Positions 7,733-62,100 of a stretch of DNA of 64,000 bases are shown one piece after another. The DNA is from Candidatus Omnitrophota bacterium. GTDB taxonomy: Bacteria > Omnitrophota > Gorgyraeia > Zapsychrales > JAKLDJ01. The notes under the pieces are model-generated. The model saw only the letters and a program-made list of their open reading frames with translations. It searched no databases and had not been told where the DNA came from. Made by a program: the position numbers and the translations under genes. How positions within the stretch are numbered: position 1 is the first letter of the stretch; every line of letters starts with the position of its first letter. The DNA lies in NCBI GenBank assembly GCA_022703585.1, contig JAKLDJ010000001.1:118891-182890 (forward strand), in the 5' to 3' direction.

Positions 7733-7755
7733 TTAATAAAATCACTCCCTTTATT

Positions 7756-9551: not shown

Positions 9552-9645
9552 AAATCATTGCCCATCCTTGATCAAGAATCTGGCAATCAATCCTGTCAAT
9601 AACCTTTCGCGCGGCACCTGTTGATTTCCAACACAGCAAAACCGT

Positions 9646-10816: not shown

Positions 10817-10818
10817 CT

Positions 10819-31448: not shown

Positions 31449-32456
31449 TCAGGCTTGCTTTAACCTGTCCGAAATAAACTTAAACCCTAAAGAAACAGCA
31501 ATTAAAATGATACCAAAAGCGACACCCTGCGCGCAGGCATAACCAAAATAGTGATCCAGCATCGAATCCAGGATCTCTGTTACCGGAACAGAAGTGTAGT
31601 CCACAAAACCGCTTCTGCCAGTCATCGAAATAATAAGGATAAACGACTGCATGGAACCTAAGATCGTCAGTATAACAACGACGAGGGTGACCGGTATCAT
31701 CGCGGGAAGAGTAACATTCTTTAGTATCTTCCAGCTCCCGGCCCCATCAACTTTCGCCGCTTCATAAAGCTGCCGATCGATTGTCTGCAGTCCGGCCAAG
31801 AACATCAAAAATCCCCATCCAAAACCTTTCCAGGAGTGCACGATGGATATGCACGGCAAGGCCGTCCGGGGGTCGGACAACCAGTTATTGACCAAATGGG
31901 GAAAACCTGTTTTTACCAGTACGTAATTTAAAAGCCCGATAGGTTCACCGCTTTGCATTCCGGCATTTAGAATCCACGTCCACACTAAACCAACCACCAC
32001 TTCCGATAAAACAGGCGGTATAAAAAAAACGACAATATAAAAATTCTTCATTCTTAGCTCGCGGTCACACAAAAGAGCGAGTGTAAAAGCCAGGGCATTC
32101 TGAAAGGTTAATGCCACGAGGGTAATAAATCCTGCGTTCATCAGAGAGCCCCACCATTGCCTATCCTGGAAAAGGTCGATAAAGTTCTGAAAACCTACAA
32201 AATCTTCCTTGAACTTAATAACATCAATCCCATTCCATTCAAGAACGGAAAGTCGAAATATATCGATAAAAGGATATACGTAGAAAGTGCAGAAGATAAC
32301 AACAGCGGGCAAAATAAACAAAAAGCTCGTGAGATGCGCCCCCATGAAGTCCTTCGACTTTGGCTCAGAATGGTGAGCGAAAGTCGAACCATTTTTCTTA
32401 CCCGGGTTCACCCGCCGCAATTCCGTGGGACGAGTCGAAGGGCCTGTCTCTACCAT
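31449..32456 (-). CDS. carbohydrate ABC transporter permease (MalF-like)
   Basis: EAA motif (YEAAKVDGAGSWKILKNVTLP) and six TM helices. The ORF-track start at 32522 overlaps the upstream binding-protein gene by 65 nt; the start was moved to the in-frame ATG at 32456 (MVETGP...) immediately after the SBP stop. A later ATG at 32345 is also possible. Confidence 0.8.
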   Translation of the reverse strand: MVETGPSTRPTELRRVNPGKKNGSTFAHHSEPKSKDFMGAHLTSFLFILPAVVIFCTFYVYPFIDIFRLSVLEWNGIDVIKFKEDFVGFQNFIDLFQDRQWWGSLMNAGFITLVALTFQNALAFTLALLCDRELRMKNFYIVVFFIPPVLSEVVVGLVWTWILNAGMQSGEPIGLLNYVLVKTGFPHLVNNWLSDPRTALPCISIVHSWKGFGWGFLMFLAGLQTIDRQLYEAAKVDGAGSWKILKNVTLPAMIPVTLVVVILTILGSMQSFILIISMTGRSGFVDYTSVPVTEILDSMLDHYFGYACAQGVAFGIILIAVSLGFKFISDRLKQA

Positions 32457-32457
32457 G

Positions 32458-33834: not shown

Positions 33835-33881
33835 AATCTCTAAGGTTCATAGACAAAATATTTGTATCGAATGCTCCTTAC

Positions 33882-37340: not shown

Positions 37341-37470
37341 GGCTTTCGTTCCTGCGCCACGACGGTACGTCGGGGCGCGGAAACGCTTTCTTGTTAAATT
37401 TTAAAAAATGGCGTACATTCCAAGCGAAACTCCGGCGTGTACACCATCTTCGCTTCTCTTCTGCGACTAA

Positions 37471-37499
37471 AATATAACATATACTTATAGCATTGTCAA
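37471..37499 (-). promoter_or_regulatory. sigma70-like promoter (TTGACA-17-TATATT) for the CBM/BIL protein gene
   Basis: The minus strand reads TTGACAatgctataagtatatgtTATATT. It gives a ~125-nt leader ending in a GGGAGG SD 8 nt before the ATG at 37340. Confidence 0.5.
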
Positions 37500-37531
37500 A
37501 ATTATTAGCGACGGGTGGCAGGGGTGGTATT

Positions 37532-37563
37532 GCCCGGCGTCCCGCGAAAGCGGGACGCCGGGC
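37532..37563 (-). terminator. perfect 14-bp GC-rich hairpin with GAAA tetraloop immediately downstream of the GH94 gene
   Basis: GCCCGGCGTCCCGC gaaa GCGGGACGCCGGGC, located 11 nt after the GH94 stop. There is no clean U-tract, so it may be a terminator or an RNA-stability element. Confidence 0.5.
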
Positions 37564-37573
37564 AAAGGGGTAT

Positions 37574-40000: not shown

Positions 40001-40152
40001 TGAAGGACCTCAAAATTGATCGGGCTGTTATTGTTGAGTTGGTAATTTTTAGAGGCGCGGCAAAACGCGGCTAAAAAATTATAGAAAACTCTACCATGGG
40101 GCAAATTTGCGGTCAAGGAAAAATTACGGGAAATTATAAAGGATAAACGGTT

Positions 40153-40186
40153 GGGGGCTTGGCGGCCATCCGGCCGCCAAGCCCCC
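40153..40186 (-). terminator. perfect 15-bp hairpin (GGGGGCTTGGCGGCC atcc GGCCGCCAAGCCCCC), likely the terminator of the giant-gene/PilZ transcription unit
   Basis: An exact inverted repeat 36 nt after the stop of the second PilZ gene, with A/T-rich flanks on both sides. Translating it is also what creates the two mirror-image 'MGAWRP' ORFs in the track. Confidence 0.6.
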
Positions 40187-40221
40187 ATGAAATTTTCCCA
40201 ACAAAAACAGTTTAACCTAAC

Positions 40222-40551
40222 CTACTGGCAAAACTTAAAAATCCTCTGGGTGTCCATAAAATCAACTTTGTCAAACTTCATGCCCACATCCCATGTTTGC
40301 GGGTTGGCGGGCCGGCTCCAAGCCACACGTCCGCTTAAATTCAGCGGTTCATGACCGTCGGGAAGCTCCACCAGCAAATCAATCTTGTCGTTTAAGAGAA
40401 ATCTCTCCTTAGTGGAGACTTTCGCGCCTGTCGCGGAGACATCTCTTAAGAAAACATTGGTACCGAAATCTGCCCGTTCGTCTTTAAACTTGACCGGGAA
40501 CCTAGCCATGAAACGATCGAAGACACGGCGATCATCAATGCCGATAACCAT
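40222..40551 (-). CDS. PilZ domain protein (c-di-GMP receptor)
   Basis: 109 aa with the RxxxR motif (RRVFDRF) and DxSxxG motif (DVSATGAKV). Confidence 0.75.
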   Translation of the reverse strand: MVIGIDDRRVFDRFMARFPVKFKDERADFGTNVFLRDVSATGAKVSTKERFLLNDKIDLLVELPDGHEPLNLSGRVAWSRPANPQTWDVGMKFDKVDFMDTQRIFKFCQ

Positions 40552-40661
40552 AGGGTTACCCTTTTCTCCGTGGCTGTTCTACTGCCCTTGGGGCAGGTAT
40601 GGCTTTCTCCCGTGGCTTGCTGTCTTCTCTTTACCCTGATAAAAATAAGGGGTAATATTCC

Positions 40662-41036
40662 TTAAAAGGCTTTTTCAATTGCGGAGCACGAACCGCTGGC
40701 GACATCGGCAAACGTCATCCCCACCCGGTAAAAATCCGAACTGGGCAGCTGGCGGACCCATCGCACTTTTCCGACGGCTAAGATCGGCTCGCTGTCGGGT
40801 GTTAACGCCAATTCTATCGGCATCTTGGTATTGACCGGAATAAATTTGGTCGATAAAAATCCCACCCCGCCGCGACTGATGTCTAAAGTCAGACTGCTAT
40901 CGAAAGCGTTACCTTTCTTGCACACAACCGGGACCCGGCAGTCGAACCGGGTCGATTTTCTTTTGTCAGAATCTTGCACTTTGTTCCTCCAATTGAAGTA
41001 TAGCACCATTTTTTCCGAAGAAAGCGTTTTTTTCAA
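40662..41036 (-). CDS. PilZ domain protein (c-di-GMP receptor)
   Basis: 124 aa with RxxxR (KRKSTRF) and DxSxxG (DISRGGVGF). Confidence 0.75.
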   Translation of the reverse strand: MKKTLSSEKMVLYFNWRNKVQDSDKRKSTRFDCRVPVVCKKGNAFDSSLTLDISRGGVGFLSTKFIPVNTKMPIELALTPDSEPILAVGKVRWVRQLPSSDFYRVGMTFADVASGSCSAIEKAF

Positions 41037-41146: not shown

Positions 41147-44100
41147 TTACCCGCATTCCGCCTCTTGCGGAGAAAGTTCCGAATCCGGATTTTCCTTATC
41201 CGGTAATCCCTCCTCTTGAAACAAAACCCCGGCCTTGACCAACGCCCGGCGAAGAGGCTTAAACTTCTCGGTTGAAATAACTTCCTCAAAACGCGCGTTC
41301 AAAACTTGGTCACCCCTGATCATATCCATAACAACCCGCGCTCCGTCGGGAACGATCAAAACACAATCCAATACCACTTTAAGCGCGTCTTCTTGCCGGC
41401 TGCCCTGGCCGCATAACATCGCTCTGGCATGCCGCGGTAAAGCATTCCATTGGCGAATCAATTGATTCAATAGCTGCGACCCTGCGTCAGTATCGCGGAA
41501 ATTGTCGATGGCCTCACCCAGCAAAAGATGATTAAGAAATACCCTCGCGATTGATAAAGTTTTCTCAATAGGCATAAAGGAAATTAATATGACAAGCTCC
41601 TTTAATGCCCTGGGCTTATTGTGCGCAGGCTCTCCTTTTGAATAATAAATCCATAAGTATTGCGCAAATAATATCTGGTATTCGCGGGTCGCCGGCGAAG
41701 AGCTCCTGGCATCAAGAAGCAATGCTTTTCCGGTCCGCTGCTCGATGGCCGTAATTCGTTCCTGCGAATCGGTATGATGGCCAAAACTGCGCCGGGATAT
41801 AGACCTTCCTTCACGCAAACGTTCTTTCAGCCGCTCGACAATAGAATCTTCATCGCTGGATTCATCCTGGCGGGGAAGCAACCGGATTTTTTCTTTTCTT
41901 TCGATATCCATAGCGTGCTTATACAGGGCGTCGTCGGGAAATGGCCCGTTTTGAAGGCCCTGCGGATAATTCGCTTCTCGCCCCAGGGCTTCTTTTCTCA
42001 CGGCCAGCTGATAAATAACCGAATCCCTGTCGGGATAAAGATCAAGGCGGCCGGCCAGAAGCGTAAACCTAAGCTGGCGCCCAAGCGTGTAAATTCTCGC
42101 CGCTAAATTCACTCCCGCCGAACCTTCGTTTTTCATGGCGGCGTTGGTATTGCGCAATCCTTTTTCAAGGCGTTGACGGAGTTCTTCTTTGGTGCGGACT
42201 AACGAACGGCGGCGGCAACCGGGGACAACAAAATCCGACAATCGCTCGATATCCCGCCGCACGTTGTAGAGCCTGCCGTAACCGTCCAGTAATTTGCTTA
42301 AGATAATCCATTCTAAGGGGCCGAGCTTATAGTATTCAACGATTTCATCCAAACAGCATAGCTTCTGACCCACCGGTAAATTCCACCATTCCTTGGTCCT
42401 TAAACGGCAATCCAATCGCGCCAAGGCCTTTTGAATCGGCGCCCGCAGGGCCGTGCCTTCATCCAGCGCTTCATCTATATCGCCGGCGTCTCTTATTCTA
42501 AAGAATGCCATCCTTCGGGAAAATTGCAGGCGCAAGAGTTCGTCTTTGGGATTCTCCTCTACCATTTCGGCCAAGGCGACATCACTGTCGTCAAAGGGAT
42601 CTGCATATAATTTTGTTTCGGGGCCAAATGCCTGGTCCATACCATTCAGGGTTGCCTTGATGGCTACCTCAGTGATGGATATGGCCTGCTTACTGATACC
42701 CCAGAGATTACCGACACGTTCCTGACTCCAGGGTTGCCCGTCTTTTGTGCCTATGCCATGGCGCAGACCAACGATCAATCTCCTCCGAGGATCTTCTAAA
42801 GAGGCGATATGCCGGCGGGCAAGTTTGATTTTTCCGTTGACCTCTTGTTCCCTGTCCAATCTTTCTTCCGCATCCTCAAAGGTACGCTGAGGGATACATT
42901 CTCCTTCTTCCCGGTCATCATTCGAACCGCGCTTAGCGTCTAAAGAAACGACGGCTGTTTCCTTTTCCGCCTTACTTTTTCCGTTGTAATGTATTTTATT
43001 TCGATATTGAGAGATCTCACCTTTCATCCACCATTCCCAATAAGTCAAAAGTCCGTTTTCGAAACTTAAGTCAAATTTGCCTAATGCCCCGAGAAGGGCC
43101 AGGCGCCCGATAGCCTTCATCTCAACCCTGGAGATGCCTGCCCGCAGCAAGTCGGACCCATGCCGATTAAACATCTCCCCCACAAATCCTATATTATTTT
43201 TAACAATATAATCGCATATACGCCCCCGAAGGTTATTGTCTCCCAGCTGAAAAGCCCAAATGAGAATCCGCTCCTCGCTGCGGGAAAGATAGCAGCCCGG
43301 CTTAACCGGCCGGGCCATGATGCGCCTGGCCCTGGCGATGGCCTCGTCTTTGGGGCTTCCCTTGACCATCCCCACCATCACAATCGGCAAAAACATCAGC
43401 GGCCCGGCCTCGACGAAGGCCATGAAAATGGCCGAGGCGGGCCCGAGGGCAGAGGGAACAAAACATCCTAAATTCTGATCCTTCAGCTGGGCTTCCTGAT
43501 CTTTAGGCCGCTGCACCATCATGAAGGAGTACTCTCTCGAAATAAATATTCCCGGCCAGGTGGCGGCTTTTTTCATCTCCCCAAGCTCAAAACCGTTCAT
43601 TGCCAAAACGTTCAATGGAAAATCAATTTCGTCCCCTAAGAGAAAACCTTGCTTCCCAAATGATTGAGCAATCTTATTAGCCATCTTTCCAAAAACGCAA
43701 TCAGGCGCGATAGCAGAAAAAAAGTTCACAGAGTAACCCATGGAAATAATAAATCCTCTAACAATATTTTCGGGTATTTGCGAATCTTCGAACCCGAAGG
43801 GAATTAGTTGAAGATTATCTTTATTTCCGGGGCTCTTGGCTTCAAGGGTCGAAAACGCGGCGTCCATAATTTCTTTGCAGTAATACGACAAGGCTTGGGG
43901 TGAAAAAACCGGGTCAAAGGCGATCACACGCACCCCACGGCTGGCCAGTTCTATCTCGACAAAAAGATTGTCACCAGAACCGATTGACATGACCATATCG
44001 CCCTCCCTGATGGGAAGCTGGTCAACGATAGCCTTCGCGGTCGCAAAAAACGGTCCGTTGAGATCTTTGAGCGCCGCTAAAACCTCTCTCTTTCTTTCCG

Positions 44101-47100
44101 CAATACCTCGCTGCTGGGGCGAATAGGAAAAAATGTCACCTTCGAAGAAAGACCCCCGTCCCCGCATCATCCCCGCCACCGGCAACAACATCAGCGGCCC
44201 GAGGGCGAAGGGCAGCAGGAAGCCGTAGAGATCGTCTTCATCATCGTCATTCGATGAGGCCTCGGAATCAGTTGCCTCTGCCTCTTGCACATCTTCTCCG
44301 TGTTTTTTAACATCATCCCAATAAATTCTCTGCTCCATATTTCCCTTGCGTAACTTAAAATTATGAAACGTCTGCGCATTAATCAATCGGGCCTCTTGGT
44401 AACTGACAGCAATCGCCGAATCAGAACCCTTTTCTTGGATAACCGCGCTGGGGAAAAGCGCGCGCACATAAGAAATAAAATCTTGGTTATCCTGATCCTT
44501 ATTGACGAATACGGCTATTCTTGCCTTCTCAATCTTAAAATCTTTTAATTTCTCAACAACGCCGTCAAAATCCTGCCTTTCCTGGCCCGCCCTGATCCTT
44601 TGGATAACCAGATCTTGCGCATAATCTTCTTCCTCCCACTCGCCGCGCACGGCAACGACGATATCGCTTCCTAAATTCTCCGAAAGGATAATACTGTTAT
44701 CGCGAAAACTTGTACCGATTCTTAATAGAATATTGCTTCCTACATAATAAAGAGTTTTGCCCTTCCATTCTGACGTCCAGCCATCATCGATAGAATACCC
44801 GGCACCTGGAGCGACCACATTAACTCGGGAATATCTTCCTTTCTTCTCCTCAATTTTATGTTTTTTAACCGACTTTGAGCCGCCTTGATTCACAGCCCCA
44901 AAGAAAGCAACAACAAAATCAAGAAAATCTGCCAATCGTAAGGCCCGTATGGCATCGGATTTTCTTTTCTTTAATCCTGACCGTTCTGAAGAATATATCT
45001 GAACGAGTCTTTCTGTTTCTTCAACTGCATGTTTTTGAAACTCCAAGGCACGTACTTCTTCGCGAAGCCTTTCCCTTGTTGATCCGAGCTCTTCCTTTCT
45101 TCTCTCGCGTTCTTCATCGTCGGGATCATTACTGTTTACCCCGTTCCGTAAGCGACGAAACTCCTCATCCGCTTCTTCTATCTGTTGCATTTTTATCGCG
45201 ATCTTTCTTTCATATTCTTTTAATTGCTTTCTAAGAAAAGAGGGGCTGGAAGCAATCCTCAATCTATGCCTGATCGTTTCCATGCGTTTTGCGGTCGCTT
45301 CATGCTCCTTTTCTTTTCCCTTGGGAACATTGTAGCGGTACTTTTCATATTGCTTATCTAATGCAGTATAAAGGTCGCTTAATCTCTTAAGAAGGGTAAC
45401 ATTTCTCGAATCATATTCATCCGCCCACCGGATAACATCTTCGCTCTCAAAATCGGCGATGATACAGAAGTCCGGATCGCCCACGAAACCACTCATTCTC
45501 GTAATCCGCGCATGCATTTTCTTAAAGATGACCGGGATCGCGATCGTAACCGCCCGCTGGAGTTGCGCGCGAGTGAGCCGTCTAAATTCTTTGCGTACCT
45601 CCTGAACTTTTTCCGCGAAACCGTCTCGATCTTCATCACCCCTTAAATGCTGTTCATCCGTTAATAGAACAATGGCCTTCAGCATGTCAGTTTCTTGCTC
45701 AGAAAATTTCATGTTAGGCAATATTTTATTCCCAGAACGCCATCTTATCTGGCCGGAAAGACTGGGGATTATCGAGCAGATCGAAGCGAAGAAAAGCAGA
45801 TACCCGTCTTCTTCCTTAACCCGCCCATGTTTAATATCTTCCGTGAATCTAAAGACCGTTGTCATGGCTAAATCCAACTTTGAGAAAACATTAACGCGCC
45901 GATGAAAAAATGAATCAGACTCTTCTCTGTGCAGGGGGCTGAGTTCGTGAATCACAAAAGACAATAAACCACACCCTTTAAGGATATCGACCGCTTCCAC
46001 CAACCGTATCTTTGAATCCTTTTTCGTCCCACCCTTAACAAGCCGCTTAAAGAATTTGAGAAATTCATCGCTTCGGGCCACCCGGGCTTTTGTTCTGGTG
46101 GATAGACGATGGACGTAGGTCATGGCCTCGATATAATCCTCATCTTCCCTGAATCTTCTTTCAAGCATATTCACCACTTCCGAGGCTTCGCAATCCATGA
46201 CCCTGGCGTGTCTATCGCAGGGAAAATTGAACCGGTAACTGTATTCATTTCTCAATATCTGTAGCGTCCGATTTTCTCTTAATCTTTTTTTGATCTCTTC
46301 TAAACCAAGACTATTGCGCTCATTCACAAAGTCAATAAGCGGGGTATAAACATAATTGTAATAGCCCTCTAATAACCCGGCCGCGCCGGTTTGATAATGC
46401 AAGGTTTGCAGGGCCACTTCGATTTCCAAAATTAACCGGATCATTTCCGGCGTGCCGGCGCTATCCAATGATTCAATCTCGTCCGCAGCCGCCAGAATAG
46501 CACGTTTGGCCTCGTACTCGATTCTTTGAACATACATTAATTCTTTAACGATGGCAGTCACCGTCTTGGTATTTAAGAAAACGCGTCTTTTATAGGCATA
46601 GGAAGGAATCGGCTCTTCAAAGGCAAGCGCAAGAGAAACATGGATATCTTTTTTTGTTGCCGTCGGGGATAATTGATAATCAATCTCTTGAATAACGGTC
46701 CGTCCTTGAGCAACCTGGTTGACACCATTACGGTCCCGGTCAGCCGCTTCGCCGCCCCGCCAGCCATAATGCATAATGGCGGTCGTCACCGCGCGTGTCG
46801 TATAGCGGGCATCGGAATGGTCGTTTTCACGAGTCCCGCGGTATCCGGTATCAAGAACGGAAAAGCGCGGGACAATAAACCCGTTAGAAAGAATGGATAA
46901 ATGGGGGGCGATTATTTCATCCTCGCCGTGAAGGGCTAAATTCATGTCATCCAGTATCGCTTCTAGTTTTTCCTGCGATATTTCCAGATCAAATTCTTCG
47001 AGGTATTCTTTTAATTCACCAACCAAAAGAGGCTCCGTCAATTCTTCCATGTGCAGCCCCTCAAGCTTCTCCGACAAAGGAACAAGCCGGTGCCCGGTGA

Positions 47101-50100
47101 CCCTTTTTTCAAAAAGCTTTACCATATCCGAATAACTGCTTAAGATACGGTTAAAGTGATGGTCGAGAAATGCCCTCGCCAGCGCCTCGGCATTAAGGAT
47201 TAATCTTCCTTCCCCGACCAATTCTTTCATGAACGACCGATCAGTCAACAATACCCTGATAGCCCGCATATCCCCCTGATTGGCTTTACGTATTACAAAA
47301 CCCCTGTATTGCCTTAAATCTTTTATCGCATCGCTAACCTGAGAAGGAATTCTGTAATAGAAATTATCCAGTGCCTTGGAATGCATCTTGAGGGCAACAA
47401 CAAATAATTCTTCCCGCTCTTTTCTGTCCCGCGACTCTTCGGCCAATTCTGCCATCAAATCGCCCAAGACCCGTAACGTTTTCCCGTAACTTTCGTAATC
47501 GATCCAGTCGTCATTGGTCTTAAACCATAACCCCTGCTCATCCGACTCAGGGCTTTCTCCGTGCAAAGAACAAAAAGCAAATAATACATTCTTTAATGCC
47601 TTATCCGTCGTAGCCACTTCTATCATCTTGGCCAGGCGCAGCGCATAGAATCTTCTCACTTCTTTATTTTGGATCCCCGCGAATCTTTCTTTATCGTGTC
47701 CGTTATCCAAACATCCTTCTTCATCCAGGGAAGAAAGCTTCTTGTATAAATCCACATCCACTGTTAGCCATAGATAGGTCGCCATATGCGCCATAGCGGC
47801 TTTTATCAGGTCGTCATCGCGGCCCGGTCTTTCCCCTTCCTTACAATCACCTGCCTCTTTCTTTGCGGCTAAACGCTCAATGTGTGCCGTAAGGGGTGTC
47901 GTAATTCTCCGGCGGATAAATTCGATCAATTCCAGATTGCCCTGCATAATTTCGCGCTTTAAAAGAGCTTCTAAATCATGCTCATATTCTGTCCGAAATA
48001 CGCCGTATTCGGTAATGGGATTGTCCAGTCCCTGGCTTAAAAATGCCAGCGCCTTCTTGCCTCCGATTAAAACCATGATTCCCCTTAAGCCACTTTTATA
48101 ACCATAAACCCCCTCGCCCTCGCCTGGCTTTTCGTCCAGATCTTCGTCTCTATTCTCGTCCAGTTTTTCGTCCAGATCTTCATCCTGCCCTTCGTTTTCT
48201 TCTCCGATTTCGCCTTTCTGCTTTGAAGGATCTGACTTTTTATTTTTTGCTTCTGCCTTTGCGGCCATGCGACGCTGTTTCAAAATTTCTTCGGCATTTT
48301 CATGCAACTCAACCAATCGCTCAAAATCATCTTCTGTTAATAAATGACCCAGCGCGGCTTCTATGTTCTTCGTACTATCCCCGCGATTTATCCAGTTTCT
48401 GGTCAGCTGTTTTGAAAGAAGCATGGAAAAAAGAATATCAATCAATTGCCCCCTGTTTTGCCTGGCCAATACGTCCAGAAGAGTAAAATGCGCTTCTTCA
48501 ATATGATAGAATTTATTCGAATCCAGCATATACTCAAGTACCGTCAAAAGCTCTTCATCAGTCATCGATTGCCCGATTTTAAGGGAGAACTGAAGTAATT
48601 TGTAATTCCATTCTTTCTTTAAATGGCCTGCTTTTTCTTCCGGGTACATACAAGAATGATGCCAATCAAGCCATCTTGAGAAATGATTTAGCACCGCCCG
48701 TTCCGGGAATTCTTTTGCGTAGGCAAAAAGGACGTACATTGCCGGTCGGCTCCAGTAATCCAGCCACAGACTCCGGCTCCATGTTTCGCGCGCGTCAATA
48801 AATTCATTTAAAACTTCAATCAAAATACCGTACGCCTGTTCAATATCGCTCTTTGTCCCCGAGGCCAGGACATAGGCCTTGCGTAATTTCGCCACCCTTT
48901 CCGGGAATTCTTCTTTTACCCTGCTCGAACCGGTTCTGTCCTTGCCGGGATAAAAACCCTTATTAATTCTTTCATCCATCTTGACGGTTATGGGATGCCG
49001 CGCGCCTAAAATTCTTTTTAAGGTAAAATATTTAGGCAAAATGCTTCCGGCGCTATCGCTATCATGAAATGGTATAATCAGATCTTCTACGCTTTCTAAC
49101 TCAAAGGTCCGGCCGTCTTCTTCATAATAACGCCCCGCCATATCAAACAGCTGGTTGGCGATCAATTTGCTCATCAGGCGCAGGGCATCTTTGGGATCAA
49201 ATTCTTTTATCTGAGGCGGGACAATCACCAACCCGTCGCTGCCCCCGGGCATAATGAATAAACCGCTTTCATCCGCCAGGGCAATGACAATACTGCCGCA
49301 TTTCTTTTCTCTTTCCCTAAGCCCCCGGTAAAATACCCCTTGATGATCAATATTCAAACAGTCATTACTTCCGCCTTGAATCGCATACTCGATATCGCTT
49401 TGTTTCATTTTAAAAAATTCAAAAATCCTCTCGTCGACATACACGTATATATTTCCCAGCTCCTTGATAACCTCATGATCATCATCTTTTTTATTGAGCT
49501 TTATTTTCCTCGCCCTTTTTAATGCCTCTTCTTTAATCTTTCTTCTATCCATAATACCGTCGCGCATGACATAGCCGGAGGTTGATTCAATAAGCGGAAC
49601 CGGTTTCTCGCGGTCATCGTCTGAAAGCACCGCGGTAATAAATTGAAGCAGGCCGCTTTGCTCAAACCGTGAAAACGATTCTTCAGTATAAAAATACACA
49701 TAATATCCGTCCCGGCCGATACGCTCAAAGTCATAACCCTGCCCTTGCGCCAAAATCTGATGAATATCCCTCGGCCCCCTTAATTCACAGACCCTGACAG
49801 CTTTCTGGTTATAGTCAAAGGCATCTTTCAACGCATAGGCGAGCTCGTCGGGGTGAGCAAATGATTGATTAAACCGTTTACCTTCCACGTAGATCTTGGC
49901 AGCATGAACAAGCCTGCGCCAACTCCATTCGTTTAAGGTGTCTAAACAGTTGGAACCTTCCAGGTCGCAAATCTTAAATTTTTCTCTCACTTCGCTTAAC
50001 GGCCTGATGCGCCTGCCTGTAGTGTTGTACCCGTAGAAATAAATAAGCGCCATCGCCTTATACAAGCTTCCGGGTGTTTTCACCTGCCAGCCCGATTCGT

Positions 50101-53100
50101 CGAACCCGCCCGATTGAATAATGAGCTGTTCGGCACCAATTCCCCGAAGCCCGCCGTGGACCTTTTTGTAAGAATTCACTATCTTTTGCAGGATATATTT
50201 CATAACGAGAATATCGGATAAAACCTCCTGCAACCCTTTCTCCCCGAAATTTTCCCTTATCTGTGCGATTTGAGCGTTAAACATCTCCGGATAAGTCTTC
50301 ATACTCTCGGACATCGATATTTCAACTCTTGTTACCGGAATTCCTTGACGGTCTTTTAAAAGAAAAGTGAACATTTGCTTTCCGTGGGCGGGAAGATAAC
50401 CTTTGACATGATCGATGAAATAACCCTGCCGGGCTAAGGCTGTATCCAAATAAATCTTTAGCCGGGCGTTTTCTTCGTCCCGGTCAAAATCATCGGCAAA
50501 CTGTACGGTCATATCGATATCAAACCGGCCGGCCATATCCGTTTCCCGCCCGACCGAACCATGATTAATAACCACGGCCCTTTCTTTGAAATAACCGCTT
50601 AGGATACTCATGATCATTTCTACCAGCGCCTCGCGCTGCTGCCGCTCATCCCTCGACGGAATTAACTCAATGCGCGTATCGATAAAATCATCCTGCGATT
50701 GGATTTGGTCAAACAATTCTTCCAAGGCAAGCGCCATAGAAAGATTCTCCTTCAGCGTCAACACCCAGGCTTGCATGTGGGAACCGAGTTTCTTTTCTTT
50801 TCGTTCATGAAATACGATAAGCTCGAGGGCTTCTTTGGCATGGTTCCGGAAAGTTTTAATAAGCCGATCAACAAGCTCTTGGGAGGAAAGATAAATCTTG
50901 ACGGAAGAATAATCATCGCCGGCCCAGATAAAATGTAACGGACCTGCCGTGGGAGATTCTTTTCGTTGATAAAATTGCACACGGGTTTTCTTAGGTGCTC
51001 CAAAAATACTTTGCAATTCAGGGCACGGTTCATAGCCGCTATGAAATTCCTCGTTAACCTCACGCTGAAAATCTTCTTGTGTCATATTGCCCCACAAACC
51101 CCAGCCCCCGGCAAGCAAGCGGTTCAATACTAAATCCATTCGCACACCCCTATTGCCTGGCGGACGGATTGCGTCTCCCTCTTTCACCATCCCCGCCATC
51201 GGAACAGAAGCGAGTAGAAGCCCCAACAGGCTGCTTAAAAACAGGGCTGTTTCAAAAAATCCCGGCAAGGCAAAGGCCCTGAGCCCTTCTTCCAACTGAG
51301 CGCGGCGCTCAAGCAACTGCGCCTGGGCAACAGGGTCATCTCGAAGTGCGCGAATTTTTCCCTGAAATTCAGGGGTTAAAACATCAAAAACCTGATTATT
51401 CTTCTGATAGGCAATGTAAAAATATACAAACGCCTCCTCTTTCTTATCCTGGCTAAAATAGGCCCTGCCGATATCAAAATAAGCCTCCCAAGGCTCAGGG
51501 AGCAGACGAATCGCCTCAAGATAATTCTCTATAGCGCGGTCATATTCTCCTCTTTCCAGATAGAAAAGTCCGAGTTCAAAAAACGCCCCTGCGTTTTCGG
51601 GGTCAACCTCTATCGACGCTGCAAAATACCCGAGCGCCAATTCATCATTCTTAGCAAAGCCATATTCCCGCCCCAAAATGCCATACGCCATTGATTCGAT
51701 TTGTTTTTGCAATGTATTGACACCGGTCGTATCCATAGCGGCGCTCAACGGCCCCTGCAGTTCTAACGGCAATTCATCAATAACCCCGGCATCCCTCTCC
51801 TGCGCCAGGTAAAAATACGCCAGCGCCTCCTCCGGTTTATCCTGGGCAAAAGATATCCTGCCTAAGTGAAAATAGGGATACATCGGATCAGGGTCGATAG
51901 CAATCGCATTCAGAAGATACGGCCGCGCCTCATCATACATCCCTCGCTCAAGATAACAGACACCGGCCCAATTCATCGCCGCCGTATCATCCGGGCGCAA
52001 CTCAAGGACTTTAAGAAAATGGGCACACGCGCCCTCATAGTCGCCGGCGTTCTCGAGCATCAGGCCGAGGTCGTAATGCGGCCTGGCGTATTCGGGATTC
52101 TTGGCTAACGCCGTGCGGAAACATTCTTCTGCTGCCTCAAGCTCGCCCATTCTCAGATACACAATGCCGAGGCCGCTCCAGGCAATTTCATAGTAGGGAT
52201 TGATTTCAAGCGCCCTCGTAAATGTGAGCAGTGCCTGCTCAAGATCCCCGTTTCTAAAATAAGTATCTCCGCGATTGGTATAAATCCAGGAGACAATGCT
52301 TTCGGCATTTCCCTGCCGAATAGTCGTGTAAAAAGAAGGCAACTCATCGGACTGCAATTTAAATATCAGCCCGCCGTCTTTTCCGCCGGGAAAAAGCATC
52401 TCAAGGGAGCCAAGATACCCTTGAGGATTGCGGTACACAGAATGAAAATTAAATCCCGGGCTGATATAAGCGCTCTCCGTAACGCTTAAGTCGACAATAT
52501 ACGATAATAGGCCGATATCCGCCATCGTCGCTGCGTGCTCCATATTGAATTCATTCGATGTAAAAACATAGATAGGATTGATGTGCAACCCGACGGCACG
52601 GCCATAGATATAAAACAACTGGACATACCCCAGACAATTGGACTTTCGCAGCCGAAGTACCTCGCTAAGGTCCCAACCGAGCGAAGAATCTTCGTGCGGG
52701 CTGAAAGAATTCCTGATAGCTGCGACAAGAAGCTCAAGTCTTTCCATTTCATCTTGAGTCTCAAGCAGCCGCGGAATATCCAATGCCGGCGCGAGCGCGA
52801 CAAGTTCATTTGCAATCTGCGGCGAGTATTCAAACGCTTGAGCCAATTCTCTGATTTTCGCATAGGCTGCTTGCTTGGTAGGAATGGAGCGCTGCGTTTG
52901 CTGGCTGGCAGTTTCCTGCGGGGCTGACCATGCGGGGACAACAGAAATAACCGATGACATAAGGACAATAAATATGCCCGCTATAACCCTTCTAAGGAGC
53001 GTCGATACAGTTCCTGGCTTTCTAGAATTGTTTAAAACAGAAGCCGCTGCGGCATGTATCCATACCACCAGTCCGTCCCGTCGAAGACGGGACGAGATCT

Positions 53101-56100
53101 CGTCGGAAGGCGCGAAACGTTTCCCACCAGCCACGGCGAGGTTAAACGTTTCGTCTTGAAAACGCCTTCCGACGGACCCCGTTGAGATACGCGGTACTCG
53201 AGATTGAACTCTGTACCGCAGTAGTTTAAAGGTAGCCAGGGGCGGCGCCCGGCTTACGATAAAATTACGAATTGGGGGCAATACCTTTTTATGCTGACGT
53301 TGCAAGAAAAGATATGCAAGCGCACCCGCGCCGAGAATCGCCAGGGCCCATACCAGAGGCACCACGCTCAAAAGCCTGCCATCCGGCTGGTCATTCTTCG
53401 GGCAGGGATATCGTTTGCCGCTCCTGCGCGACTCTTTATTCTTCCTTTCATCTAAAATTGTCTTTATCGCCGGGCCGTCCGATCTTAAAAGGCAATATGA
53501 CAAGGCGATAAAATGGAATGCAAAGAAGGCAAAGCCGGCGGTAAAAACAACATCGTTCTCTCGATTCTTCGAAGCTATTACCCATCCCGGCACAGCCACC
53601 ATCGCATGAATAAAGGCCGGCACTAAAAGGATAATAATCCGCTGGATGTCCGTTGCGTACTTGATTTTCTTTAGCTTATTCCATCCATTGAAGATAATGG
53701 CCGGAACAATATGTCCGATAAAATGCAACCCGGTAAGGCTCAAAGGAGCGGCTACGGAAATTGTTATCATAAAAACAAGCGGATTGGAAATACACGATTT
53801 CGCATCCGGCAATTCAGTTAAAAAGACTCCAAGGATTATGCCGGCCATAATAAACAAAAGACGCATTTCCTCCTTCATTGCCTTACGGCTTTTCCAATAA
53901 TAATCACTAATGAATCCGTTCTTATGCAATTCTTCTCCGTGCTTATAAATTAAAGGCAGTATTTCTTTGTACCGCCGGGATAAGAAAAGATATACACTCG
54001 CGCCCGCGCCGAGAATCGCCAGGGCCCATACCAGAGGCACCACACTCAAAAGCCCGCCGCCCGGCTGGTCATTCTCCTGGTAAGAGTTCGCGGGGTTGGT
54101 GCCCCCGGAATACATATCCTGCTGCGAAACTCTTTGCCGCAAGAGCGCGAACATTTTAAGCCATAAAGAGGTAACCTGCGATTCGCTGATGGCCTCCTGC
54201 TCCGGCGTGTTGCGTAAATTAAGCAGCGTGCGGCTATACCCGCGTGCCCGGCCGTCAACCATTTCCAGCAGCACGGATGCAGAATGAAGACGCGCGATAA
54301 CTTTACGCATACGTTTCCCGTCGGATTCTTCATTCTTAAGATCGATTTTCTTGATCCGTTGCAAGGCTGCTTTCAGAAAATCGGCCGCAATAGCATTCAA
54401 GTGCTGCCGGTAATTTTCCAGCGGGATAAAATCTCTGCCAAAAGCCGGGATATTACGAACATAGAGAAGAGCCGTAGTTGTTTCCAGGACGTTGGTGTGC
54501 ACCCGTCCCCCTTCTATTTCGGTGCCCTGCCCCTTGCCCTGTTCTATATTTTCAAGCCCAAAGACAACAAAACTGATATCTTTAACCGGAATGTCCAGGC
54601 TGCTAAAATGTTTTTCCAAATATTCCCTGTCGATTGAACGTAACGCATAGGCATCGCCTTCGACGATGATATCGATATCAAGGTCGGAAGGATTATCGTT
54701 ATACGGCCAGCTGCCGTAAACCGAGACGGAAACAATATTCTCGCCGGGATACCGCTGTTGCCAATAACGGACAATGAGCGGCGCAATATGGGTTTGCAAA
54801 TAAACGATTCTTGCGACAACACCTTGAAGTTTCTCCTCATCCATCGATCGGCAATACATATTGCGTTCCCGCAGTATCCCCATGATCTCACCCGGTGTCA
54901 TGTGTTCGCTGACTTGTGTATCCGCCAGCACCTGAATAGGAAACCGGATATCGATTTTTGAGGCCTGCCCAAGCCAGGCAAGATATCGCCTGGCAGCATC
55001 CATGCTTATCTCGTTGGGGACAGACCCCGCCCCATCTTGGGTATGTCCCCCCTTTACACTTTGGTCTGTCCCTGATAATAGAGGGACATGTCTAGGTACA
55101 GCTGGGGGACATACCGGGGTTACAGCGGGGTCTGTCCCCTTACCCCGCTTGTTAAATAGGGGCTTAAAGGAAAGATATTTCATGCCCCAGAAAGCAATAA
55201 TACCGCTGGCCAGCAACACAATAATATTAACGGCCTGGCTTTCCGTGGGCCCTAAAGGAATGGTTGTTTCTATGCGGAGAACACTGGAGAGATATTTCTT
55301 TATTTCAGTAAGACACCAGACGCTGGAGATAAACACAACCAGCCGTTTTCTATCCTGAAACAGTTCCAGGATAAGGTTGTTCATCTTTTTACCGCCCATT
55401 TTATTAAACACATTCCTGGAAGCCATATGAAAAAGATACAGGGCGCTTACAACCGACGGTGTCGCCAGTATTTTAAAATATTGAACGTTGTCGTGATTAA
55501 GCGGTTGGCGCAATAAACACTTTAAGGCCGTATCCTCAAACAGGCATTTCAGGGAGCCATAGGAAGAATGCCGCACAAAACCGACAAATGTCAGGATTCC
55601 GGCTATCAACAGAGACGTAAGCGTGCGACCGCTGATAGGGCGATACCTAAGAAAAGAGAAACGCGAACTGCTTTTCTCGTCATCCTTTTGTGATACGGCG
55701 GAGCTGCCATGATTTACCCCGTTCTTTTTATTCCACCGGAAGATAATCGCGAGCGCAACAGATAAAATCATCGCCGCCACTATTATTTCCAGAAGAATTC
55801 TTACCATTTCCGACGGCTTACAGATTGAGGGCAATGTCTCTTTGTGCCGGCTGCACAAGAAAAGATATACAAGCGCACCCGCGCCGAGAATGGCCCAAAC
55901 CCATGCCGCCGGCGCCACGCTCAAAAGCCTGCCATCCGGTTCGTTACTCTCCGGACGAGGATTCGAAGAGTTCGTGTCTTGGGAATGCCTAAAAACTCTC
56001 TTAACCAATCTAAACACCCTTTTAATCTTTCCCTCCGGCCTTAAAATTGCGCACAAGGCTTTTGAATAGCCGAGCAATGCGGGCGAAGGCAACCAATCCA

Positions 56101-59100
56101 TTTTTTTGCCCCGGTAGGACCCTAAAATATTTTCGATAAGAATCACAGTGCCGTGTTCAACAACCGGTTCGCCGGCTACAGACCCCTCACTCTCAATATC
56201 ATCGATCTTTCTCGCATACGAACCTGCGGTCGTGCCGTCCGGTCCGCGATGAAATTCCGCGATCACACACCGATACGATTCGCGATAAGTCTCCCCTAAA
56301 GCCGCGCCGTTTAATCCTTTTACCCTGTTGGTATGCAATCCCGCGACAGCCTGTCGAATGGCAATCGGATTTCCATACTCATCCCTAAAACCCGTCCCGG
56401 CATCGAAAAGCAAAAACTGAAAGGCATACTTTTCTCCAAAATCTCCAAACCTCTTAACCCGGCGAACTAACAGGGCTCCCCGGCCGCCCCCGTGCTGTTG
56501 AAGATTCTCTAGAGAAGCGCTCATGGCCCGTTTACTTGAGGACATCGCAAAATAATTCGCCTCAGGAAAGACGCTCCGAGAAAACGCCACATTGACAATC
56601 GTCCAGAAGAAGTCTGATAACTCGTGCGCATTACCGGTTTTTCCGGCAAAACCCAGCTCCCAAAGCTGCTGCTGTATGCCAAAAGAAAAATCTTCGCCGG
56701 CTTCTTTTCCCAAAACTTCCTGCCAAACCATTGGCAGAATTTTCTGAACGTCCGGATCTCCGTCAAAAACTGCCCCCATTGATAGGTCTTCCGTTATCAC
56801 CTCCCCGCTTCTGGCCTGGCTTCGCCCAAGGGCTTCGCCGAGGCGAGTGGGCCGAGGCTCGCCCGCCTCGGCTTTTGCCTTCGTCGAGGCCGGGTCTTTC
56901 CGACTATCGCCGGAAAGACGGCCCAGCATAAACAAGACAGGCAGGATAAAAACCGATAAACCGGGAATCAAGGCCCACAACTCCAGCTGTTCCGGCTGAG
57001 CGCCCCGGCCTGGCTCCGGTTGAACGCCCCGGCTTTGTTCCTGCCAATGGCTATTGTCAATCACCATATCAAAGACGGGATAATCGCGCAGCATGCTGCC
57101 GATGGACGGCATCGACAGCTCATCGACAACCTCCGTTATTCTTACACCAGGATTATCGAGGCGGATATTCTCCTGGCGTGTTTTTGGGTCAGCGTACACG
57201 AGCACTTTGACGTCAAAGACAAGCGGAGTATATTCTTCCAAAAACAGCGCGCTCCACCCCTCGACAACAATCATGCGTACGGTGCTGTTTCTTTGCAATT
57301 GCTCAATCTGCCCGGTGATCCTTAACATCGGCTCTTCGAGAGTAACGCTCCGGGAATCGGCATGGAGAACAACAACCCCATCCAACTGCTGCTCCAGAAG
57401 TCCGGCTATGTGCGTCTTACCCGTCGCCGTCTTTCCTGTCAACGCCACATACAGAGGCCGGTTAGCCCGAGACCTTTTGGAAAGATTTTTCATGTGTCTG
57501 AGAGCCACTTCCACTGAAATAGGTTTCCGGGAAAACTTCCGCCACATCGCCATAAGGCCCGCGCGGAATGCCGCAAAATCATCGCCTTTCGTTATCTCCA
57601 AAATCCTGTCAAGTTTAGAGGTCAACAAATACCGTTCATTCACCGGGGTGGCATCGATAAGCTTTCCGATGAGATTCTGCGCAAATCCCGGTTCCTGCTG
57701 GCGCAGGCGGATCAATTCGCGGACAAGAAACCTGACATTAAGCGTTCCTAAATCTTTGTCAAAAGGCGTTAAAGTATTCAGCGCGCAGATAATCACTTTA
57801 TACAAGTAAGGCCCGTACTCCCGGGGCAGCGCGTTAACCGATTCCGCGATAGCGGGAATATCTTTAGGATCCTGGGCATAATAGACACGCTCATAAACTA
57901 ATTCACTGATCGGCAATACCCGATTTCCGGATGTATTGATCATTCCCGACAGCGGCAGAAAGATAAGCCCGGGCAGGAAACAACCGAGCCTTTCTGCGCC
58001 GGGATCTTTGACAATACTCTGGCTATCGCGCCTCATGATGGCGACGGGGACACTGATTGAATCCGACGCCGCATGGATGTAGCGCGAGCCGCTTCGAGTT
58101 GTCGCCTTGACGGCAAATAACCCTCCGTTATCCAAATAATAATAAGGTGTCAGCCGGGCCGGGCCTTCCATGGTACGGTAGGCGCATGATGCCGCGTCAT
58201 AATAAGTCCACGGCATCTTCCGCGGCTTGAGGGCTTCCTGGATAACATATGTTTCCTTATCTCCCAGGGCCTGGCGGATCAACCGCCCTACTTTGTCATG
58301 AGATTCTCCATCCAAAAACCACAAGTTCATGCCCCACGATTGGTTGGTGGGCTTAAGCACAAACTGCCGTTGTCTTCTTTTAAGATTCTTTATCTCTTCC
58401 CACTGCCGAACACCCAGCTCTTTTAATTCCTCGGGTATGTACGCGTTATCCACCACCCACGTTTTGGGTATAAGCCCCATCAAGATCCGGTAATGTTCCC
58501 TACCCAATTTTTGTTCAAACCAGGGATTGTATTCCGGAGAGTGAAACAGCGCCAAGGGGATCTTGCCTTCGCAAAAAGCGCTTAAGCCGGGCACTAAGGT
58601 GATACGCCCTTCCTTCGCGAGGCGGATTATTTCTTCGACAGAGGAATTACTGTGGCGGTCTTTCACATAAAAACAGCGGTAAACGGTTAATCCGGATTCC
58701 TGCCGGAGCAACCGGATGAATCCGTCATCCGTCTGCGGCGGAGCCCTGGTATCGTCGAGTAAAAAGGCTGTCGCGTTAATGCCGACGGACTGCAGCTCTT
58801 GGGTAAAATATTGAATCTGCCCGAGGAATTTTCTTGTCCGTTCATTGGCGGCAAAAATAATCTTTTTATCTTGAAGTGAGCCGCTGTCTCCCGCACTCAA
58901 GACTCTTTGGGCAAAACTCTTAAGAAAATCCTCTCCGGTGAGGCCCAAAACCTCAAAGCCGCTTTCCTGATAGATCTTCTGGAGCAGATACACCAGGCCC
59001 AGGCCGTAAAAAGAAGTTTCAAGCTCAACCATCCCCATGCCGTTTTCGGTCATAACCAAATCCGGCCGGATAAAGATATTCCCCGCCCTATTGGCATCAT

Positions 59101-62100
59101 CCAGCAGGCCCTTGTGATCAAGCCGAACATGGCACTCCGACGACCAAATGTAACGATACCACCGTGAATCAACCGGCAAAAGAGTCCGGTCGTGAACAAG
59201 GTCCAGGCATGCCGCAAAAAATTCCCTCAATGCCTGGCAGGCATGCTCCAGGAGAGCAGCCTCTTGTTGGCTGATATATAACGGCTCCGGACTGACACGA
59301 AACGGCACGTTTTCGACAGAAATAATTTCGCCGCTTCTGGAAGGATAAATCCATCCCTCCGGCCGGTGAGAGGCCTCTTGATCCATCGCGGCCAAAACCG
59401 GATCGTTTTCTTTGATCCCCGCAAGCGAGAATGGAACCGAAAACAGAAACATTAACGACCCGGGCAGAATAAAACAACCCACCGAATGGTCAGTTGACAC
59501 TTCATCCCCGTCGTCTTTCCTGCCGGAATGCCGGCGGCTTAAAACATAATAATCAAATTGACGATACCCGGGCATCACATCTAAAACGCCCATTATGGTC
59601 GCGCGCAATTTCATCATAATCAATTTTAGCGCGGCGCCGTTAGAGAACATTTCTGACATGGCCTGCAGCGGCATCGCCGCGTATCCGACAATCGGCAAGC
59701 CGGACACCACAACCCAATACCAGCGAAAGACCACATCGCGATTGCGCGCCGCTGACAGCAGGGTAACGACAAACCTGAAGATACCGGGAATAAAGCATCC
59801 AAAGATTGCCAGCCTGACCGGCGCGGACCAGTGAAAGCTATGCTCGATAAAAATCATCCGGTACAGGTCACCCGTCGCGTATGCGCTCAACGCCCCCGCG
59901 ATCACATCGCCGGGGAATTTAAAAACGGTGTGCCAGAAAAATACCAGCGAATAGGTCAGCCATTCTTTGGTTTTTGTGGCGGCGTGAAAACGTTCGTATT
60001 CCGCGCGCGGCATCTTGCCGGCATCGTGCATTTTCTCAACGTCTTCCAAAAGCCAGGTATTGATTTTAAGAATTGTTCCCGCTTTAAAATCTCCCCACGA
60101 GCGCGAACGATAGCTGTTTTTAATCAGCGGCCAAAGCAGGCGGCCGACATGCCGCCATGTTTGCGTGTTAAAAATAAGCGCGCGGCTTATCTTGTCGACA
60201 AGCGGAATTCCGTCGAGAGTGGCAAGCAGGACATACAACGGCGTATGCCGTTTCAGACGCTGTGCCGTCGCGGGTGAAATATCTTCACTCGCCAACCAAT
60301 AGCGAATCATCGTATCTTTAATATAAAAGTTTTTAGAGACACGGCCGGTTATCCGCCCCCAGAAATCAAGCCGGCTGGCATCGTAGATGCCGCACAGTTC
60401 TTCATAGAAAGCAAGGCGGGCACCCATCCGTTCTGCCTCTTCGCCGCGCATGTGGTCGCCGATATAGTCCGACAGCGCTGCGGGGTCAAGCCGGTCAAAC
60501 ATCACCCGGTAGTTTCCGGCTCGAAACGCCCTTAAAATCGCCGCCGCGTGATAGGGATAGAAAAAGACCATAATCGGAATTGCCGGCGTGCGGTCGACCC
60601 AGACAAATTCCCCCGAATGCCGCCGCATAATATTCTTATAGGTCTGCGCCGGGCCGTCGAAGCGGTCATCAATCTGATAGAGATGCTCGTTAAACCCGGC
60701 CTTTTCCGCCAGCAGGCGAAAACGCCGAAGGTTTTCTTCGTACATCTTGCGGTTTGCCTGGCCGCTAAAACCATTGCCGCCGTCAATCCATTCCACCACT
60801 TCACCGTAGGCGCGATGGCTGACGCTAAAGAATATCGCCCGCGAACGCGCCACCACCGGCGCGCCGACCTCATGCTCGGCAACATCGGCGAGCATGTCGC
60901 CCACGACCATATTGAGCAGCACCGCTTCCTTAATATAGCGATAGGGAAAACGCGATTGATAGGCTACGGCGTGGGAAAGATTTCTTAAAAATTCTTTGAT
61001 GGCGCCGCTTAGGCCCGACAAGGCATACACCCGTAGCGCCACCGGAGTACCGGTTTTAAGGTCAACCGCCCTGTAGACGCTGGCGCCAAGGCCGCTACCC
61101 GCGAAACTTTCAATCCGGTATCGCCGTTTTTCTTTTCTTAAAATATCGCGAAGGTTAAAGCCTGAGGCATGATGAAACGCGTAAGAAAGCCGCTCCTCAT
61201 CAATGACTTCGGTATCCAGTGCGACGGTTTCCCCGCGGACAAATAAACGCTCATCCGTATCTTGCATGCTGACTTCCGCGTCCACAGACTCTTTGATTGC
61301 TTGACTTCGCCGGCGTTCGGCTAAACCCGCGATTAAACCTTGCAACTCTTTTACGTCAGACGTTACCCCCAGCACCGATTCGTCATTAACCCAATATTCC
61401 ACATCTTCCTGGTGGGTTGTGTAGAATACGACCGGGATATTTATTTTTGCCTTCATCATCTCCTGAAGTAAACAGACACCACAACCATCAGGCATATCAA
61501 AATCAAGAACGACCAGGCCAATTCGCTGTATGCCTTTTTCAATCTTCTGCCATGCCTCTTGACAGCCATTGGCATGAACCACTGTATAGCCTTGGGCCGT
61601 CAATATCCTATCCAAATGTCTGTGCACATCCTCGGAATCATCGACAACCAATATCTGTAAATGATCTTCAAAAGACGCCGTCATCCCCGTCCGGCAAAGC
61701 CTTCTTGAGGCTTTGCCGAGATCTCGGCGTTCCGACCCCTCGTCGGAACGCCGGACCATCCCCACAACAGGTAAGCCCACTAGCGGCAGGAAGATAAGCC
61801 CGGGCAGGAAACAGCCCAACGATTCAGGTTCACATCCAAAGGCACGGTAGTAGTGCTCCATCTCTTTGTCGGACACCTTGGTATCAAGCTTGTAATCGGC
61901 GCGCGCGGCAGCCAAAAGCTCCGCCAGGAATTGTCGTCGTTCTGCTTTGGGAATTTTGGTCACGCGGCTGATGTCACGGTTAGACAGCGCGTAAATCATC
62001 GCAAGCATTCTTTCCCGTTTGTGTTTGGTGAGGGTGCGGATCATGGTGCGCAGGTCTTTAACTTTGATCATCAGAAGAACAGTATCGCAGGCGATAAATG

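Follow-up and report, generated by a model that had tools for sequence, protein, structure and literature searches.

The 64,000-nucleotide (nt) stretch of Candidatus Omnitrophota DNA analyzed here (the window; contig JAKLDJ010000001.1, positions 118,891 to 182,890, assembly GCA_022703585.1) contains the 3′ part of a single giant open reading frame (ORF), which is read on the reverse strand, starts beyond base 64000 and runs off the window end, with its stop end at base 41147. Within this ORF lie three direct repeats, here termed class A, each of which encodes a predicted membrane helix together with the polar linker before it and the basic residues after it.

The DNA around the GH94 gene beside the giant ORF was 100.000% identical over 8.4 kb on contigs (0.5–1.6 Mb) from four sources, and on three of those contigs the adjoining gene was called at 85,803 residues. 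This is the product length of the published 257,412-bp ORF from wastewater Omnitrophota, a single ORF of more than 30,000 amino acids (aa). Based on the match in product length and the 100% identical loci we took the window to cover the last 7,617 codons of that gene, and it appears to be the 3′ end of a published Omnitrophota giant gene of the “Archaeovorin” type (Kizina et al., 2022; West-Roberts et al., 2023, bioRxiv 10.1101/2023.11.21.568195; 2026 preprint, 10.64898/2026.06.07.730766). In the portions of these accounts available to us, the 257,412-bp ORF is given as the longest known (West-Roberts et al., 2023), and giant proteins are described as having about one transmembrane (TM) helix per 370–1,500 residues and highly divergent domains. 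No longer bacterial ORF than the host gene has been described, and its repeats bear on how such genes come together, enter the membrane and may be processed.

The window portion of the protein is rich in predicted TM helices, with about 20 distinct hydrophobic segments in 7,598 residues. Pfam clearly identified a response-regulator receiver domain and tetratricopeptide repeats (TPRs); a transglutaminase-like core was borderline (23.2 bits vs. a cut-off of 23), and matches to P-loop kinase, nucleotidyltransferase (NTP_transf_2) and sigma-70 region 4 families were weak. The domain scan detected no glycosyltransferase in this 3′ part, and a SecA DEAD-like domain was not present in the window portion either. 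Many TM helices and adjoining sugar-uptake and glycoside hydrolase (GH) genes are features shared with the Archaeovorin-type giants, and highly divergent enzyme-like and TPR modules may be another.

The class-A repeat

A repeat search of the window returned a single three-copy direct family, at 53263–53438, 53941–54116, and 55816–55991. An nhmmer model of the three copies found exactly three sites in the 64 kb, on one strand and in one frame, and a protein hidden Markov model (HMM) of class A recovered the same three sites from the six-frame translation. Self-blastn of the 22.8-kb gene portion aligned copy 2 with copy 3 at 91.5% identity over 94 nt (53982–54075 vs. 53304–53397, E = 1e-32), copy 1 with copy 3 at 77.9% over 145 nt, and copy 1 with copy 2 at 75.9% over 137 nt, and yielded only one other DNA-level repeat, a 35-nt pair. 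The longest exact run shared between copies was 41 nt (copies 2 and 3), compared with 13–16 nt in 20 codon shuffles of the gene. A first-pass annotation of the same DNA had reported this three-copy repeat, with about 90% identity between copies 2 and 3 and a more diverged copy 1; its coordinates were right, and the measured identities bear out both statements. The greater divergence of copy 1 depends on the length compared, however. Codon alignment sets the extent of the repeated unit at ~48 codons (144 nt), and over that full length the three units are about equally related (74–78%), with 91.5% reached only in the 94-nt center shared by copies 2 and 3.

The copies are spaced by 1875 and 678 nt, both divisible by 3 and hence in frame, and lie 4,040–4,930 residues ahead of the stop codon (Table 1). 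Each unit begins with a polar/acidic linker, continues with a hydrophobic helix of 24 residues and closes with a basic patch. In the protein alignment, of which 23 of 61 columns are invariant, an N/D/Q/P-rich linker is followed by PDGRLLSV(V/A)P..W.(L/W)AILGAGA..YLFL and then by R/K/H-rich residues, an arrangement that the annotation had also described correctly. To our knowledge the PDGRLLSV signature is not a known motif.

Table 1. Positions of the giant ORF, its class-A and class-B junctions and the intervening features in the window.
Feature	Position	Strand	Details
Giant ORF, 3′ part	41147..64000	-	7,617 codons; no in-frame stop up to base 64000
Class-A copy 1	55817..55960	-	aa 2662-2709; helix LLSVAPAAWVWAILGAGALVYLFL at 55856-55927; insertion ΔG ~ -0.6 kcal/mol
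Module 6	54086..55816	-	between copies 1 and 2; extra TM helix, multi-pass membrane domain and nucleotidyltransferase-like domain
Class-A copy 2	53942..54085	-	aa 3287-3334; helix LLSVVPLVWALAILGAGASVYLFL at 53981-54052
Module 7	53408..53941	-	between copies 2 and 3; ~180-aa membrane domain, ~4 TM helices, HFIGH motif
Class-A copy 3	53264..53407	-	aa 3513-3560; helix LLSVVPLVWALAILGAGALAYLFL at 53303-53374
RNFIVSRAPP motif	53240..53269	-	immediately after copy 3
Next hydrophobic helix	52931..52987	-	aa 3653-3671; signal-anchor-like (RRVIAGIFIVLMSSVISVVPAWSA/PQE)
Class-B b103	63521..63637	-	
Class-B b709	61751..61825	-	ESLGCFLPGLIFLPLVGLPVVGMVRR
Class-B b1489	59408..59485	-	
Class-B b1987	57935..57991	-	
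Class-B b2322	56909..56986	-	
Class-B b4226	51182..51274	-	
Class-B b6575	44162..44227	-	
Class-B b6826	43361..43474	-	

Descent and stability of the copies

Likeness among hydrophobic helices could arise by convergence, and codon usage at conserved residues speaks to this directly. At conserved positions with degenerate codons the three pairs of copies used identical codons at 25 of 31, 23 of 28, and 18 of 27 sites, where ~9–10 would be expected from the codon usage of the gene (P ≤ 3e-4). This codon identity, ~2.5 times expectation, means that the likeness stems from common DNA descent and not from convergence on a hydrophobic helix: the three copies go back to a single DNA sequence that was duplicated within the gene, as had been proposed in the first-pass annotation. 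The duplicated “module” of that proposal is narrower than its name implies, since only the 48-codon linker–helix–basic cassette repeats. Nucleotide identity was 79–92% in the helix and 25–58% in the 8–12 codons on either side. The proportion of synonymous differences per site (pS) was 0.15–0.33 in the helix and 0.26–0.42 over the core; in the flanks outside the unit it was ~0.6, with a nonsynonymous proportion (pN) of 0.4–0.8, which is the level of unrelated sequence. From the sharp drop to unrelated flanks we conclude that the cassette alone was copied, and not the neighboring module. Within class A, pN/pS was ~0.4–0.75, indicating relaxed constraint. Tandem domain repeats of giant adhesins and titin-like proteins are likewise products of intragenic duplication in giant proteins, but the class-A copies are dispersed, consist of a 48-codon helix cassette rather than a folded domain, and have unrelated flanks.

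The duplications had been thought recent. Private substitutions numbered 19 in copy 1, 17 in copy 2, and 12, the fewest, in copy 3, and together with the 22–26% divergence of whole units and their near-equidistance they indicate that the duplications are not very recent. By themselves, the three repeats are an ordinary and fairly old internal duplication that bears no sign of variation.

The same annotation had seen in the direct repeats a source of size or phase variation of the giant protein, through in-frame expansion or contraction at a recombination hot spot. The arrangement is suited to this, as exchange between the direct, in-frame copies would cleanly remove module 7 or module 6. RecA-dependent exchange usually needs ~20–30 nt of identity, which the 41-nt run between copies 2 and 3 exceeds. 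The overall identity of the copies is nevertheless limited (91.5% over 94 nt at best, and 76–78% for copy 1), and the units have diverged by 22–26% without loss or homogenization. Across all three copies the protein was identical in the window and in three contigs in the style of the Joint Genome Institute (JGI), those behind the gene calls P0001 and P0075, and the product length of 85,803 residues was the same in three further assemblies. All assemblies compared at the DNA level represent one strain (100.000% identical), so this agreement is weak evidence on stability. Searches further afield gave no match, whether GTDB species-representative genomes were scanned with the class-A alignment, or metagenome contigs with aa 2655–3566 and the degenerate pattern [VI]RNFISRAPP[LI]. 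Among 1.84 billion representative proteins, too, no relative exceeded 42% identity. We regard variation by this route as quite unlikely; the claim found no support here.

Because direct repeats can be collapsed or joined chimerically during assembly, the true structure could also differ from the one read, a concern that the annotation had raised as well. In several assemblies the giant gene is indeed interrupted immediately upstream of the window, but the breaks fall near 63.5–64.0 kb, away from the repeats. Each repeat is shorter than a read; the copies share at most 41 nt exactly, carry 12–19 private substitutions each and sit in unique flanks. Contigs named in the manner of SPAdes (NODE_), MEGAHIT (k141_) and JGI all cross them, and the three JGI contigs have the same sequence. 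An artefact of assembly is, on these grounds, exceedingly improbable.

A short (~144 nt), sharply bounded, in-frame unit with unrelated flanks is also what might be left by an in-frame mobile element encoding a hydrophobic peptide, resembling either a miniature inverted-repeat transposable element (MITE) or a Rickettsia palindromic element. Rickettsia palindromic elements are short (~100–150 nt) in-frame repeats within ORFs that add a peptide segment. Class A is unlike them in that it is not palindromic and occurs as three copies in one gene only, in a single frame. RNA folding of the copies was no better than that of shuffled sequences (z = +0.34, +0.11, and −0.31), no terminal inverted repeats are common to the copies, and the three copies in the 64 kb all lie in one gene, on one strand and in one frame, with none intergenic. 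No further instance was found in viral contigs with the degenerate helix-core pattern AxLGAGA..YLFL or in the GTDB species-representative genomes with the protein alignment. The absence of structure, inverted repeats and dispersed copies largely refutes a mobile element, and we consider this origin very improbable.

The contig ends near the upstream border of the window show a pattern of their own. One MEGAHIT-style contig, with a gene call of 7,606 residues, stops no more than ~35 bases from the edge of the window. The JGI gene calls begin with a Met codon at 63544 in the case of P0001 (7,465 aa) and at 63625 in that of P0075 (7,492 aa). As at least three contigs seem to break between ~63.55 and 64.0 kb, a longer repeat is probably present immediately upstream in the giant gene.

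Seams and predicted membrane insertion

To examine the surroundings of the units, aa 2308–3507 served as the query of an exhaustive HMMER search through 1.84 billion representative proteins. The only close matches were to the same protein, namely P0001 and its cluster mate P0075, each identical to the C-terminal part of the window protein, all three class-A copies included. The remaining 73 matches were distant (≤48% identity), and none of them had its best match on a class-A unit. Most fell on four homology blocks: a GHKL-like block (to ~aa 2607), a membrane domain (~2766–2940), a nucleotidyltransferase (~2994–3277), and a four-helix membrane module (3335–3503). Many of the matching proteins are small (120–370 aa).

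Module 6 thus contains two separately matched pieces. Its multi-pass membrane domain (~180 aa, aa ~2766–2940) has shorter homologues of 120–215 aa. It also has homologues in metagenome-assembled genomes (MAGs) labeled Planctomycetales, Ignavibacteria, and Acidobacteria, and those found in the genome scan had neither a nucleotidyltransferase nor a module-7 neighbor. Its nucleotidyltransferase-like domain (aa ~2994–3277), to which the weak NTP_transf_2 match belongs, has shorter homologues of ~205–370 aa. Module 7 is homologous to two other proteins, P0066 (249 aa) and P0070 (511 aa; BLASTP E = 1e-14). The GC content of modules 6 and 7 (0.43–0.49) was not clearly separated from that of the rest of the gene (0.45–0.53).

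The class-A units fall at the borders of these blocks. Unit 2 (3287–3334) occupies the gap that opens where the nucleotidyltransferase homology stops (3277) and closes where that of module 7 begins (3337); unit 3 starts (3513) 10 residues past the end of the module-7 homology, as defined by P0066 (3503); and unit 1 (2662–2709) lies between the end of the GHKL-like block (~2607) and the start of the membrane domain (~2766). Units 2 and 3 are therefore located exactly at joins of independently originated pieces, and unit 1 between two such pieces. These seam positions are our main reason for calling the class-A units joint helices.

The class-A helices are among the most hydrophobic ~0.2% of the 19-residue windows of the protein, with calculated insertion free energies (ΔG) of ~ −0.6 to +0.5 kcal/mol, scores that fit helices able to insert on their own. 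The linker–helix–basic layout would suit a membrane-spanning, topology-setting segment, and the present role of the units may be to help thread and anchor the roughly dozen hydrophobic segments between aa 2668 and 3680 in the cytoplasmic membrane. In protein order, the arrangement as predicted would run from a GHKL-like ATPase module through copy 1 to the multi-pass membrane domain and nucleotidyltransferase, then through copy 2 to the four-helix membrane module and copy 3, and from there by way of RNFIVSRAPP and the signal-anchor-like helix to a transglutaminase-like and TPR module.

On balance we lean toward reading the class-A units as membrane-spanning joint helices that either were copied as cassettes when modules were joined or were partly homogenized by short-patch conversion. 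In the first case a resident junction helix would have been copied whenever a new module (6 or 7) was spliced in beside it, a tie between copying and module insertion that we infer from the positions of the units. In the second, junction helices that already existed would have become partly alike through short-patch gene conversion.

Several points weigh against this interpretation. The data do not separate duplication at insertion from later conversion. The order of insertions is unreadable owing to the rough equidistance of the three units (74–78%). Mosaic gene conversion among the copies gained no significant support from a runs test (P = 0.12). Unit 1 does not abut homology blocks but has 50–60 unmatched residues on each side. 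In P0070, the module-7 homology is preceded by a different TM helix with PDVKFLSV, whose resemblance to class A is not significant. The seam position could be partly trivial, as TM helices often lie at domain edges anyway. The insertion scale was of the Hessa type, applied with no position weighting, and membrane insertion of class A is a prediction. A single-sequence AlphaFold2 model of copy 2, module 7, and copy 3 was unusable (mean predicted local distance difference test score, pLDDT, 54.8). Finally, the analysis covers the last 7,617 codons of the gene, while ~78,000 upstream residues (235 kb of the gene) lie outside it.

Two further features were noted in this part of the gene. The helix at 52931–52987, part of a feature noted at 52304–53275, resembles a signal anchor or signal peptide and leads into the transglutaminase-like core (cysteine-peptidase fold) and then into ~300 residues of TPRs; in the window portion, only this transglutaminase-like and TPR module has a periplasmic or exported appearance. 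Between copies 1 and 2, at 55016–55139, the gene contains a weakly self-complementary stretch (68.8% over 125 nt).

Other junction families and neighboring genes

The same ORF contains a second family of hydrophobic junctions, class B, which is older and more diverged and comprises eight copies (Table 1). Its members have an acidic linker, LGCF-LPG, a P/G-rich hydrophobic stretch, and GMV[KR]. They stand between modules that otherwise have no kinship: unknown helical, REC, ATP-grasp-like, P-loop kinase-like, GHKL-like, a large block of 2,300 aa, methyltransferase-like, and sigma-70-r4-like. Two pairs stand out at the nucleotide level, b709 and b1987, which are 94% identical over 35 nt (61782–61816 vs. 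57951–57985), and b6575 and b6826, which have 11 of 12 codons in common at conserved residues and flank a single 231-aa methyltransferase-like module. Adjacent class-B junctions were not clearly the most alike at the codon level (52% vs. 44%). Insertion scores exceeded +3 kcal/mol in five of the eight copies and were +0.6 to +2.2 in the others; with scores this marginal for the most part, class-B segments may not be true TM helices but re-entrant or interfacial ones. Immediately before b2322, the linker carries a 24-nt tandem duplication (79% identical) at 56991–57038 (protein ...QPEPGRGAQPEQLE...).

Other giant-protein fragments have junction repeats as well. P0019, a fragment of 5,939 aa, contains two short hydrophobic junction families, each with three copies whose flanks are unrelated; GEKSYPAG occurs nine times in P0026, and P0017 has long exact linker repeats. 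RNFISRAPP follows two of the repeated TM junctions of P0019 (residues ~1105 and ~4105), as RNFIVSRAPP follows copy 3 here, and we put the chance of sharing the 9-mer RNFI(V)SRAPP at equivalent positions at ~1e-3 as a rough estimate. The class-A and class-B HMMs found no match in the P0019, P0026, and P0017 fragments, from which it follows that each gene has junction sequences of its own. The recurrent motifs of these fragments suggest that such gene-specific junctions are general among giant proteins. A wider generalization, that the giant ORFs of Omnitrophota consist of formerly independent genes spliced at short gene-specific junction cassettes that propagate within each gene, seems to us rather doubtful at present. 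If true, the cassettes would mark the true module boundaries and so supply the missing information on boundaries and cleavage points. Copied helices at seams offer a concrete way to cut giant proteins into building blocks, and they hint that such genes grow by the splicing of modules at reusable junctions.

Junction cassettes might act as recombination joints for the gain and loss of modules, as membrane staples, or as sites of polyprotein processing. In modular polyketide and non-ribosomal peptide synthases, short conserved inter-module stretches can mediate module gain, loss or gene conversion. Class A resembles these systems in its DNA-level similarity between modules of a very long multi-module ORF; it differs from them in having membrane helices as its conserved stretches and mutually unrelated modules, and no exchange event was observed.

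Processing would imply that the giant ORF encodes a polyprotein and that class-A and class-B junctions are recognition or cleavage sites of sortase, exosortase, rhomboid or C39 type. In the available portions of West-Roberts et al. (2023; 10.1101/2023.11.21.568195), cleavage by C39 or S8 domains is raised as a possibility with the points left unknown, and the lack of cleavage or boundary points is said to block structural analysis. Likewise, the accessible text of the published accounts describes no cleavage points or module boundaries; that of the 2023 paper does not mention “polyprotein,” and that of the 2026 preprint does not mention cleavage, linkers or internal repeats.

Several features fit such processing. 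The modules resemble independent cytoplasmic enzymes or separately occurring proteins, recurrent inter-module motifs such as the GEKSYPAG of P0026 occur in other giant fragments, and a module with a cysteine-peptidase fold (transglutaminase-like with TPRs) comes after copy 3. The three-part layout of the class-A units, a polar signature followed by a helix and a basic cluster, is also that of C-terminal sorting signals (PEP-CTERM/exosortase, PGF-CTERM/archaeosortase, LPXTG/sortase, and GlyGly-CTERM/rhombosortase), and class A probably shares their orientation too, in which the polar side faces outward and the basic side inward. Unlike sorting signals, though, the class-A units are internal and not C-terminal, and no sortase, exosortase or rhomboid was found among 28 of the ~32 flanking ORFs of at least 150 aa in the window. 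The gene-specific junction sequences are a better fit to propagation within a gene than to recognition by a shared processing enzyme, and the relaxed constraint on class A likewise argues against a recognition site. We therefore judge processing at these junctions unlikely. Known sorting-signal families were ruled out for the class-A and class-B copies by profile searches: NCBIfam gave no match to any copy at E ≤ 10, and Pfam gave chance-level matches only (best E ~0.1, to unrelated TM families).

What the present analysis adds to the published picture of giant genes is modest, namely that their junction helices group into sequence families particular to one gene and are located at or between blocks of homology. 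In the portions of the published giant-gene accounts available to us, we found no statement on helices copied at the DNA level, on gene-specific junction families or on their coincidence with homology seams.

Directly downstream of the giant gene are two small PilZ genes (40662–40979 and 40222–40551), followed by a GH94 phosphorylase (37574–40000) and a 1,152-aa protein with CBM_4_9 and PT-HINT domains (33882–37340). Components of a sugar ABC transporter are also encoded in 31449–40979, which matches the carbohydrate-import neighborhood reported beside giant genes. Farther away, at 5169–12078, lies a cluster resembling those for ribosomally synthesized and post-translationally modified peptides (RiPPs), with an NTP_transf_5 protein that has an S24-like N-terminus, an ABC-2 transporter pair, an HPr-kinase-C-like protein, a radical SAM/SPASM enzyme, and a GT2 fused to PqqD.

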